Shown: positions 29,873 through 31,312, counted from the first letter of the stretch. The stretch is DNA of 31,596 nt from a virus (IMGVR_UViG_3300034091_000309), one strand, 5' to 3'. Numbers and translations are program-made. Notes: a model not told the origin generated them from the letters alone.

Positions 29873-29939
29873 AGTCACCCTTCCGCGTCCTCAACTCTGC
29901 AATGCGCTTAAAATGCGCCTTCTGTGTTAAAGTAAGGTG

Positions 29940-30280
29940 TGTAAGGAGTCGATGGACTCCCTGGAGAGCGCTATGCGAAAGACGGGCGGTCAGTAAGCAA
30001 TGTTCGGTCTGGGTCAGAAAAAGCCGACGTACAGGTTGTGGCAGTCAGCCTGGCCGCGCAAGCGGCAAAAACGTGGCGCAAGCCTTTGGCCATAGGAGCG
30101 CGGCGGCCGACCGAAAGGATAGTCCTCCGCAGCCAGTGGAACTCGAAAGACGCCAAGACCCTGCGGTGTAGCAGCCGTAAACGCCGGGATAGAGAACTTG
30201 CGGTTGGCGCTATGGTCCCGGACAAGGAGAGGAAAGCTGGCGGGGGTTGCGGCTCAACCTCTGGCCCGAAAAATTCGGGA
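29940..30280 (+). ncRNA. candidate large structured ncRNA 1
   Basis: ORF-poor with many hairpins, two with clear GCAA tetraloops plus GAAA loops; extended -10 TG-t-TAAAGT at 29925-29933. Confidence 0.45.
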
Positions 30281-30286
30281 GTGTTT

Positions 30287-30490
30287 ATGCCTTGGATCAT
30301 TCGCTGGTTGATCTGCCGCGAGTATCGGATTCGTAGGGACTGGATTCTCAGTGAACGCAGGACTGATTACCGGGAGCGTCGGCTACTGCACATGATCCTT
30401 GGGTATAAACCGGGCGATGTATACTTTCATTGCCACTGTGGCAGGTATTCAGACAGTTCAAGATTGTGCCCTGAACACAAAGTTGGTTGA
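30287..30490 (+). CDS. hypothetical protein (67 aa)
   Basis: RBS gggag. MPWIIRWLICRE...HCHCG...C. Confidence 0.55.
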   Translation: MPWIIRWLICREYRIRRDWILSERRTDYRERRLLHMILGYKPGDVYFHCHCGRYSDSSRLCPEHKVG

Positions 30491-30497
30491 ATTTCGC

Positions 30498-30573
30498 GGA
30501 CCCGTCGTCTAGCGGCTAGGACGCCACCCTGTCGAGGTGAAAGGCGCCGGTTCAAATCCGGTCGGGTCCGCCA
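30498..30573 (+). tRNA. tRNA-Asp(GTC)
   Basis: Acceptor ggacccg/cgggtcc, loop ct-GTC-ga, T loop ttcaaat, GCCA. Confidence 0.9.
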
Positions 30574-30577
30574 AGTT

Positions 30578-30925
30578 GGGTGCATCGAGGGATACTGGCC
30601 ACCGAGGAGCAAAGGCGGCCGGGAAGAGAATATCCGATGTGGAGCGGGTACGGAGACTCGGCGACGATCCTTTACTGAAGGGTAATTGAGAGGCGTCTTA
30701 AAGCCACGCTCTAGGCAAAGCCTCGATGCGGCAGTATGCACCTAGAGAGCGGGGTCGTCGCTTTTGTCACTCCTTGCTCGGTAGGGACGATGCACCCATC
30801 AAGTTGCAGCCGGCTGTGGTGCCACGCGAGATGTGTGGACGCTTTGCTCAGAGATGAGCTACGAGCCTGAATCACCGGCTGCAAGAACTTCCCGGCGCTA
30901 TGGTGCGGAGGGAGAGCCTCCGACA
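30578..30925 (+). ncRNA. candidate large structured ncRNA 2
   Basis: Nested long-range stems 30578-30797, second domain 30804-30884, terminal hairpin 30906-30922; no convincing plus-strand ORF. Confidence 0.55.
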
Positions 30926-30976
30926 AACAAAACTGCTTTGTGGACGAAACACGCCGGGAAGACTTTAAGGTAGGCG

Positions 30977-31312
30977 ATGGAGATTTGCGATTTCTGCAGT
31001 TCGCCGCGGGTGGTCAAACGCTTCGAGTGCATGGATTTCGACAGCGCATCGGAGGATGCCGGAGTGCTCTATGCAGATGCCGGTGCGCCCGATGGACAGA
31101 CGAACTTGGTTTTGGCCAGCAAGGATTTCTGGGCAGCCTGTGAACCATGCCGGATTCTGGTAGAGACCGAAAACATTGATGGCCTAGTGAAGCGAGCGAT
31201 GGAGGAATTCGAGCGGCAGGAGGGATGGTCACATTCGCAACGTACAAGGGCAGAGCGGCATCTGCGGCGGACATACCAACTATTTTTTCAGAATCGCATT
31301 AGGATAGGTTAA
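30977..31312 (+). CDS. Zn-binding hypothetical protein (111 aa)
   Basis: RBS aaggtagg. CDFC...WAACEPC. Confidence 0.7.
   Translation: MEICDFCSSPRVVKRFECMDFDSASEDAGVLYADAGAPDGQTNLVLASKDFWAACEPCRILVETENIDGLVKRAMEEFERQEGWSHSQRTRAERHLRRTYQLFFQNRIRIG

Follow-up and report, generated by a model that had tools for sequence, protein, structure and literature searches.

In the tRNA cluster of phage T4, two small stable RNAs of ~120-140 nt, species 1 and 2 (rnaC/rnaD), are cut from the tRNA precursor. When an RNA is compact, pseudoknotted, and built of freely covarying helices with dozens of invariant unpaired bases, it has usually proved to be a ribozyme, a riboswitch, or the core of a ribonucleoprotein. 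Theta (minimal HDV-like) ribozymes adjoin phage tRNAs, with the cleavage site within ~5 nt of the tRNA end (PMC10879173). The HDV-like/theta fold is a nested double pseudoknot with a 7-bp P1 running from the cleavage site, a 3-bp P3, and a catalytic C in J4/2. Orphan RNA motifs have also been described in phages of IMG/VR, with 8,495 unnamed, covariation-supported candidates (csRNAs) that average 67 nt and are of the hairpin type (PMC10690425).

Here, we investigated an intergenic locus of the uncultivated virus IMGVR_UViG_3300034091_000309. The window, by which we mean the whole stretch of DNA analysed, is 31,596 nt long. The original prediction for this locus, made from the sequence alone, was a single large RNA of ~350 nt right after tRNA-Asp, with mutually exclusive helices and a rod of ~220 nt that was loosely likened to 6S RNA as a speculation. 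We found three modules at the locus, the first of which recurs as a portable RNA module in three otherwise unrelated groups of uncultivated soil phages, probably of Acidobacteriota. See Table 1 for the coordinates of all features.

Table 1. Features of the locus, numbered from the first nucleotide of the window; P1, P2, and P3 are helices or arms of module 1.
Feature	Coordinates	Strand	Evidence and remarks
Window	bases 66434-98029 of the record	minus strand of the record	134,250-bp virus record with direct terminal repeats
tRNA-Asp (GTC), CCA encoded	30498..30573	+	ARAGORN; Rfam tRNA 58.2 bits
Module 1 (D1), P1 5' strand to P1 3' strand	30577..30798	+	Covariance models R1 133.8 bits and R2 95.3 bits, full model
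P1 5' strand UGGGUGCAUCG	30577..30587	+	Pairs with 30788-30798; 11 pairs, 8 with double changes
Junction AGGGAUA	30588..30594	+	AGGGAUG in the other copies except L029, which lacks UG
P2 hairpin CUGGCCACC / GGCGGCCGG	30595..30622 (30595-30603 with 30614-30622)	+	One A.C mismatch in the window copy
CCGAG, candidate pseudoknot strand	30602..30606	+	Pairs with CUCGG 30777-30781
P2 loop GAGGAGCAAA, 10 nt	30604-30613	+	Near-invariant
P3 arm (the "rod"), 144-147 nt in the window copy	30623..30769	+	Stems 30661-30670/30752-30761 and 30707-30715/30741-30751 inside
Competitor CCUCGAUGC	30721..30729	+	P3 apex; perfect complement of GCAUCGAGG, 30582-30590
3' core CUCCUUGCUCGGUAGGGA	30770..30787	+	Near-invariant; identical in 3 copies, 1-6 differences in the rest
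P1 3' strand CGAUGCACCCA	30788..30798	+	Covariation; RNAalifold gives the same helix on its own
Module 2 (D2a)	30800..30887	+	Helix UUGCAGCCGG 30804-30813 / CCGGCUGCAA 30875-30884 around a variable interior
Module 3 (D2b)	30888..30961	+	Helix CUUCCCGGCG 30888-30897 / CGCCGGGAAG 30952-30961; encloses CGGAGG 30906-30911 / CCUCCG 30917-30922
Candidate 22-codon upstream ORF inside module 3 (weak)	30900..30968	+	In frame in L016 (GTG start) and L021
111-aa Cys-rich protein gene	30977..31312	+	ORF; 14 homologs in relatives
tRNA-Glu	from 31355		Past the 111-aa gene; the locus is a tRNA-rich stretch

A structured, non-coding locus of three modules

The 403-nt intergenic region folds on the + strand at -165.9 kcal/mol, compared with -143.5 +/- 6.3 kcal/mol for dinucleotide shuffles (z -3.55), and 0 of 100 shuffles folded as well. 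The reverse (-) strand folds similarly, with a z of -3.5. We chose the + strand because G.U pairs in the conserved helices P1 and P2 form on the gene strand only.

The helices originally proposed are all present and correctly placed. The outer stem gggtgcatcg/cgatgcaccc (30578-30587/30788-30797) has 10 perfect base pairs, or 11 with U30577-A30798. Within it lie accgag/ctcggt (30601-30606/30777-30782), gcgacgatcc/gggtcgtcgc (30661-30670/30752-30761, one G.U), and cgctctagg/cctagagagcg (30707-30715/30741-30751). The proposed second domain contains ttgcagccgg/ccggctgcaa (30804-30813/30875-30884), the hairpin gctca-GAGA-tgagc, and cggagg/cctccg (30906-30911/30917-30922).

The central claim of a non-coding structured RNA was borne out: the RNA is on the gene strand, has no Rfam match, and shows covariation. 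We scanned the window and seven homologous loci against Rfam at the gathering score and at E<=10. Only tRNAs and one tmRNA were recovered, with tRNA as the sole match in the window, and none of the 6S, Y RNA/YrlA, riboswitch, or ribozyme models matched in these loci. The module 1 family appears to be absent from Rfam and undescribed. A coding reading fails: a small frame (ML..EERR) recurs, but it has no ATG in two members (the window copy and L029), and P3 does not vary in steps of 3 nt (its length is 48 nt in L013 but 47 nt in L018).

The idea of one large RNA did not hold up. Relatives L016 and L021 carry domain 2 without domain 1, and domain 1 is found alone elsewhere. The picture of the locus is corrected accordingly: the rod is an expanded variable arm of module 1, and what was called the "second domain" is a conserved leader of the next gene, independent of module 1.

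Module 1 defines a small and sharply bounded RNA family

The family comprises nine copies from eight lineages in three phage clades, including two copies in the window genome. Core patterns together with R1, the first covariance model, identified a close relative from a peat metagenome (L013). Homologs of the 111-aa protein led to L018/L019/L020, and five IMG/VR contigs carry the module as well (L024, L025, L026/L027, L028, and L029). A second model, R2, was built from all nine sequences. Two copies are all that the core patterns and both models detect in the window genome, and outside it there is one copy per record. The eight copies other than the window copy score 50-150 bits with R1 and at least 84 bits with R2. 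Scores with R2 are bimodal: across 471 kb of carrier phages and relatives, members score at least 84 bits and nothing else appears at E<=1. Each copy folds with a z between -2.8 and -4.6.

Members are 95-135 nt long, the window copy excepted. Copy 2 of the window genome (118 nt; record bases 128755-128872) is on the same strand, with a late gene to either side. It has in common with the window copy a 36-nt 5' core, CGAGGGAUrCUGGCCrCyGAGGAGCrAAGGCGGCCGG, and a 20-nt 3' core, CUCCUUGCUCGGUAGGGACG. Five of the 11 P1 pairs differ between these two copies, and all five are compensated. The window copy has four private substitutions in addition to its one mismatch in P2.

By gene sharing, the carriers split into three clades with 2-10 common gene families between clades. 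The presence of module 1 is sporadic, and close relatives lack it. Most of the relatives that we fetched via the vWA, 111-aa, and 91-aa neighbour proteins are without module 1, and it was not found in L005-L009, L016, L021-L023, L060, or L061. None of the 50,697 deposited phage records yielded a true match by BLAST. When IMG/VR, GTDB genomes, and JGI metagenomes were scanned for the exact cores, most matches were chance ones in coding DNA, alongside the true members; the matches in L004, L010-L012, L030, and L036 were rejected on this ground.

With covariation power drawn from eight lineages, we are highly confident that module 1 represents a real RNA structure family maintained by selection. 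Its members are few and its bounds sharp, and the short members (~100-118 nt) are easy to synthesise.

Conserved helices and near-invariant bases of module 1

Module 1 is closed by P1, a GC-rich helix of 11-13 bp whose sequence varies freely. It has no mismatch, and 100% of its cells are paired in the nine sequences. Eight of the 11 pairs of this outer stem have double compensatory changes across the nine homologs. The next helix, P2 (9 bp), was overlooked in the original prediction. Double compensatory changes are present in five of its seven outer pairs, and RNAalifold predicts it. Across the nine sequences, 97.6% of cells are paired, compared with 30-53% when partners are slid. On this comparative evidence, P1 and P2 are proven by compensatory changes, which affect 13 of 18 pairs in the nine sequences.

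The helices are joined by ~40 near-invariant junction and loop bases, namely AGGGAUG, GAGGAGCGAAGG, and CUCCUUGCUCRGUAUGGAC. The P2 loop is near-invariant throughout the family (consensus GAGGAGCGAA; loop GAGGAGCRAA). Two candidate tertiary helices, P1a and a pseudoknot, consist of such invariant bases plus a few one-sided changes, and we infer that both form. P1a would pair AGGGA with UCCUU (30771-30775). Its five pairs are 100% paired, and the sole variation is a U to C change in L025 that turns a G.U into a G-C pair. An energy-predicted 3' hairpin, UCCUUGC/GUAGGGA, is broken in L024, L025, and other members, and P1a is therefore preferred. The pseudoknot would join CUGAG at the base of the P2 loop to CUCRG in the 3' strand, and in the window copy it corresponds to the accgag/ctcggt stem described above. 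This candidate helix is 95.6% paired. At pair 32-210 of alignment A3, it has U.G in five sequences, U-A in two, and C-G in one, with one broken, and the helix competes with the two innermost P2 pairs.

An alternative pairing, of GAGGAG with CUCCUU and AUGCUG with CGGUAU, is 82-98% paired across the family, and for L018, L024, and L026 it gives the fold of lowest energy. In L028, a P2 change (pair 26-209) is compensated within P2 and breaks the alternative helix. From the predicted folds, an internal two-state core is possible.

The rod is an expanded peripheral arm

The arm that had been read as a rod is P3, which in the other copies is a free hairpin of 17-48 nt. The middle of copy 2 is only 29-32 nt long, compared with 144-147 nt in the window copy, and we therefore regard the conserved RNA as smaller, with the rod as an insert that is optional. 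The 5' part of the window P3 resembles P3 of L013 and L018 (AGCGG-UA-CG-GAG-AC). These two have a common GCG-GUAA-CGC hairpin, of which the window copy keeps a trace. The remaining ~100 nt of the window P3 is found nowhere else and is single in the genome. When we compared the insert with other local sequence as a possible duplicate, the similarity was not above that of shuffles.

The complementarity between gcatcgagg (30582-30590) and cctcgatgc (30721-30729), on which the proposal of mutually exclusive helices was based, exists in the window phage. The 5' partner, GCAUCGAGG, consists of inner P1 plus the start of AGGGA. In a post hoc test, complementarity of 9 nt was reached by 4 of 1000 dinucleotide shuffles of the insert with a 27-nt target and by 13 of 1000 with a 51-nt target. 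A region-wide local-alignment test was not significant. The competitor is absent from every homolog; it is private to the window phage and therefore is not the family mechanism, although it may modulate the window copy. Because the insert is unique to the window phage, the support for the two inner rod stems and for the competitor is thermodynamic.

Modules 2 and 3 form a leader of the 111-aa gene

Judged by its conservation among relatives, the region of modules 2 and 3 (30800-30976) is a structured 5' leader of the 111-aa gene that is conserved separately from, and independently of, module 1. The closing helix of module 2 is kept in L016 (UUGCAGCGG/CCGCUGCAG), in L021 (UUCGAGCGG/CCGCUCGAA, with two compensatory pairs), and in L018, around interiors that range from 60 to 240 nt among the three. 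The L016 sequence passes straight from tRNA-Asp to AAGUUGCAGCGG..., the beginning of module 2, without module 1. Module 3 has 16 pairs that are 100% paired in four sequences, compared with 39-52% in slid controls, and two of the pairs have compensatory changes. The candidate upstream ORF inside module 3 has no Shine-Dalgarno sequence, and its changes track the hairpin and not the peptide. The stop of this ORF in L021 overlaps the ATG that comes next.

In L018, module 1 and the leader are separated by a further module (L018:822-935), whose closing stem is GUUGCGGCGGG...CCGGUUCGCUGCAA. The clade of L018 appears to chain hairpin modules with similar UUGCnGC/GCnGCAA closing stems.

Genomic setting of the copies

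Module 1 is always intergenic and in the same orientation as the upstream gene. It starts 4 nt 3' of the end of tRNA-Asp in the window, so the placement right after a tRNA is correct for this copy. It does not extend to the family, as tRNA adjacency occurs in only one of the nine copies. In L013, a different tRNA-Asp and a 61-aa ORF precede module 1, and in L018 a small Cys-rich ORF lies upstream, with no tRNA-Asp. Clade A has module 1 within tRNA operons. G001 carries its copy 18 kb away from the tRNA array, and tRNA genes are absent from G003-G005.

Downstream, a hairpin is always found 3' of module 1, and it is terminator-like in L025 and L029. In L025, module 1 closes a tRNA operon; the terminator comes next, and the vWA gene beyond it is convergent. 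The L029 copy has a promoter-like site 54 nt before it and a terminator only 2 nt past its end, and the 2122-aa ORF that follows is convergent. The L028 copy has a GC hairpin 3' of it and, past that, an operon that is again convergent. The other copies have a same-strand gene 35-180 nt downstream, with module 1 ending 53 nt before the start codon in copy 2 and 35 nt in L026. Promoter-like sites occur at two loci only, at varying distances, and the idea of a promoter immediately 5' of module 1 was rejected. The flanks beyond P1 are not alignable among the copies. We found no protein common to all carriers, either neighbouring or genome-wide, and the downstream genes are unrelated. Pfam and PHROGs yielded little on the neighbours of module 1.

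We also made several observations on the surrounding DNA. The DNA 3' of module 1 is almost the same in the window and in L013, a close relative; the upstream DNA differs, as do the tRNA-Asp genes (30498-30573 and L013:1408-1483). Since the two match downstream only, module 1 lies at a mosaic recombination junction. Small Cys-rich proteins are found among the neighbours of module 1 (61 aa in L013, 60 aa in L018, and a zinc ribbon in L024). Window positions 30287-30490 encode a 67-aa Arg-rich protein with an HCHCG...C motif that is conserved in L018 (460-690), where it is directly 5' of the RNA element. Further upstream, positions 29900-30290, from tRNA-Met to a small Cys-rich ORF, show nucleotide conservation in L016 (~400-690) and L018 (~170-460). 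Overlapping ORFs on both strands of this region all "match" in L016 and L018, and the pattern suggests a further non-coding RNA and not a protein.

In the syntenic relative L007, a tRNA-like gene (L007:5455-5530) has a GTC anticodon loop near-identical to the body of the window tRNA-Asp, with a mismatched acceptor stem and no ARAGORN call, and may be a decayed or chimeric tRNA. The same relative has five tandem units of ~72 nt, each with the hairpin GTGCATCGAGCAGATGCAAC, just 5' of the small genes that adjoin the vWA gene (L007:2960-3300). These units may be another repeated RNA. A 138.5-kb relative has a permuted tmRNA within its tRNA array (L035:194-496; G002, ~62.8-63.3 kb), identified by RF04321 at 75 bits in agreement with ARAGORN.

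Possible functions of module 1

We favour the reading that module 1 is an autonomous, stable non-coding RNA that is cut from a polycistronic transcript and acts through its invariant unpaired bases. We put the probability of this statement as a whole, mechanism included, at about 0.4. Module 1 would be transcribed along with the upstream genes or tRNAs, would be folded constitutively, and would be excised from the precursor. In the window copy, 3' processing of tRNA-Asp would define the 5' end, which in the other copies would perhaps come from an RNase E-type cut in the purine-AG/UU flank. The long P1 would shield the paired ends. The RNA would then act in trans, presenting the purine-rich, unpaired bases that are invariant to a partner that is itself conserved, whether protein or small ligand, and would not be an open-promoter mimic.

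Several features lead us to this reading. Module 1 is seen as autonomous because the flanks are unconserved, the carriers fall in three near-unrelated clades, relatives lack the element, and each genome has one or two copies. A helix of free sequence that pairs the ends and closes a compact invariant core, all in a portable unit, is a pattern most like that of stable stand-alone RNAs. Action in trans is favoured because the copies in L025, L028, and L029 end a transcription unit, with convergent genes next. Furthermore, at 11-13 bp and GC-rich, P1 is too stable to be fit as a switching helix.

A broader proposal, which we hold tentatively and well short of even odds, is that module 1 is a new RNA class: a ribozyme that cleaves itself, or else a sensor of a ligand or protein with two stable folds, in which CUCCUU toggles between AGGGA and GAGGAG. 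If true, phages would disperse a new catalytic or sensing class as a portable RNA gene. As a cis sensor, module 1 would be a riboswitch-like aptamer or protein-binding leader that controls the next hairpin or terminator by P1 strand exchange or by an internal switch. Covarying helices around ~40 near-invariant junction bases are aptamer-like, the next element is always a hairpin, copy 2 and L026 lie close to start codons, and the alternative pairing exists family-wide. In L025 and L029, the P1 3' strand also resembles the terminator 5' strand and can pair with the terminator 3' strand (p 0.08 and 0.07). However, complementarity of P1 to the downstream sequence is not significant across the family (Fisher p 0.17), and the length and GC content of P1 tell against strand exchange. 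For an internal switch, the L028 change at pair 26-209, which P2 compensates and the alternative helix does not survive, is unfavourable. The downstream genes have no coherent function, and three of the eight lineages face convergent genes; L025, L028, and L029 are without a downstream gene to control, which argues against a simple 5'-UTR riboswitch. We consider a cis sensor rather unlikely.

A new class of self-cleaving ribozyme, one that would process the polycistronic transcripts of the phages and, in the window phage, free the upstream tRNA, is in our judgement also an unlikely identity for module 1, and a little more so. The size, the compact fold with a candidate pseudoknot, the invariant unpaired bases, and the variable peripheral arm are as in small self-cleavers, as is the sporadic occurrence in phage intergenic regions in gene-strand orientation. 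The start 4 nt past the tRNA CCA end in the window copy is theta-like in layout (PMC10879173). However, no Rfam ribozyme model matches any member at E<=10, the proven helices are unlike the HDV-like, hammerhead, twister, pistol, and hatchet topologies, and the other copies have no adjoining tRNA.

Module 1 could also be a passive processing or stability element, that is, a nuclease barrier or RNase site protecting or delimiting the neighbouring RNA. Its place between genes or at operon ends, the long closing helix, and the purine-AG/UU motif at its 5' foot, which is similar to the preference of RNase E, fit this idea. A barrier would not need ~40 invariant unpaired bases across three phage clades, however, and we find the idea improbable.

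As a DNA-level mobile element (MITE/REP-like), module 1 would have its stems as terminal inverted repeats. Its sporadic presence among relatives, the two copies in the window genome, and the mosaic junction with L013 could be taken this way, as could the short repeats that flank the window copy (AAGTTG) and copy 2 (GGAAG) on either side. However, it is the termini that vary freely, with compensation, and the interior that is fixed, which is the reverse of what a transposon shows, and the G.U pairs fit one strand only. Clades B and C have no flanking repeats, and copy numbers do not exceed two per genome. The repeated AAGTTG (AAGUUG in the RNA) is the conserved start of module 2, and thus not a target duplication. 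We regard a mobile element as highly improbable. Last, the originally suggested 6S-like decoy of RNA polymerase has next to no likelihood left: the window copy is indeed a ~220-nt bubbled rod with good folding energy, but no 6S model scores, the rod is a lineage-specific enlargement of P3, and the homologs of 95-135 nt have neither rod nor central bubble.

Comparison with known RNAs

Like 6S RNA (RF00013 and relatives), the window copy is non-coding, has its ends paired in a closing helix, and is rod-like at ~220 nt. The family as a whole differs, as it is built of a junction, a hairpin, and a candidate pseudoknot and not of a rod with a central open-promoter-like bubble. The window copy is theta-like in starting a few nucleotides from a tRNA 3' end on the same strand. 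However, unlike theta ribozymes, the family has no HDV-like nested double pseudoknot, no model match, and no regular tRNA neighbour. In a direct attempt to map an HDV-like fold, the 11-13-bp outer helix and the 9-bp hairpin with its 10-nt loop could not be placed in the HDV strand order, and with the 5' flank taken as P1 there was no complementary strand. A hammerhead, suggested by CUGAGGA..GAA in the P2 loop, was rejected as stem II would have no space and the sequence in the window copy is CCGAG.

Three-way-junction riboswitch aptamers have a covarying closing helix, conserved junction strands, a variable peripheral hairpin, and a candidate pseudoknot in common with the family. Unlike these aptamers, the family has an overlong P1, no consistent class of downstream gene, three copies before convergent genes, and no model score. 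The CUCAG...GGAC stretch, which we take to be akin to the 3' junction of the glycine aptamer, is a lead only, and the glycine aptamer has no model score here.

The phage csRNAs of IMG/VR (PMC10690425) are the same kind of object as module 1, a covariation-supported intergenic RNA motif of uncultivated phages. Module 1 is more elaborate, with its ~40 near-invariant bases and candidate pseudoknot, but it is set apart from them by description only and may be among them. For the making of the clade A copies, the closest analogy would be species 1 and 2 of phage T4, likened by description and not by sequence; unlike these, the module 1 family is also at home in phages without tRNA genes.
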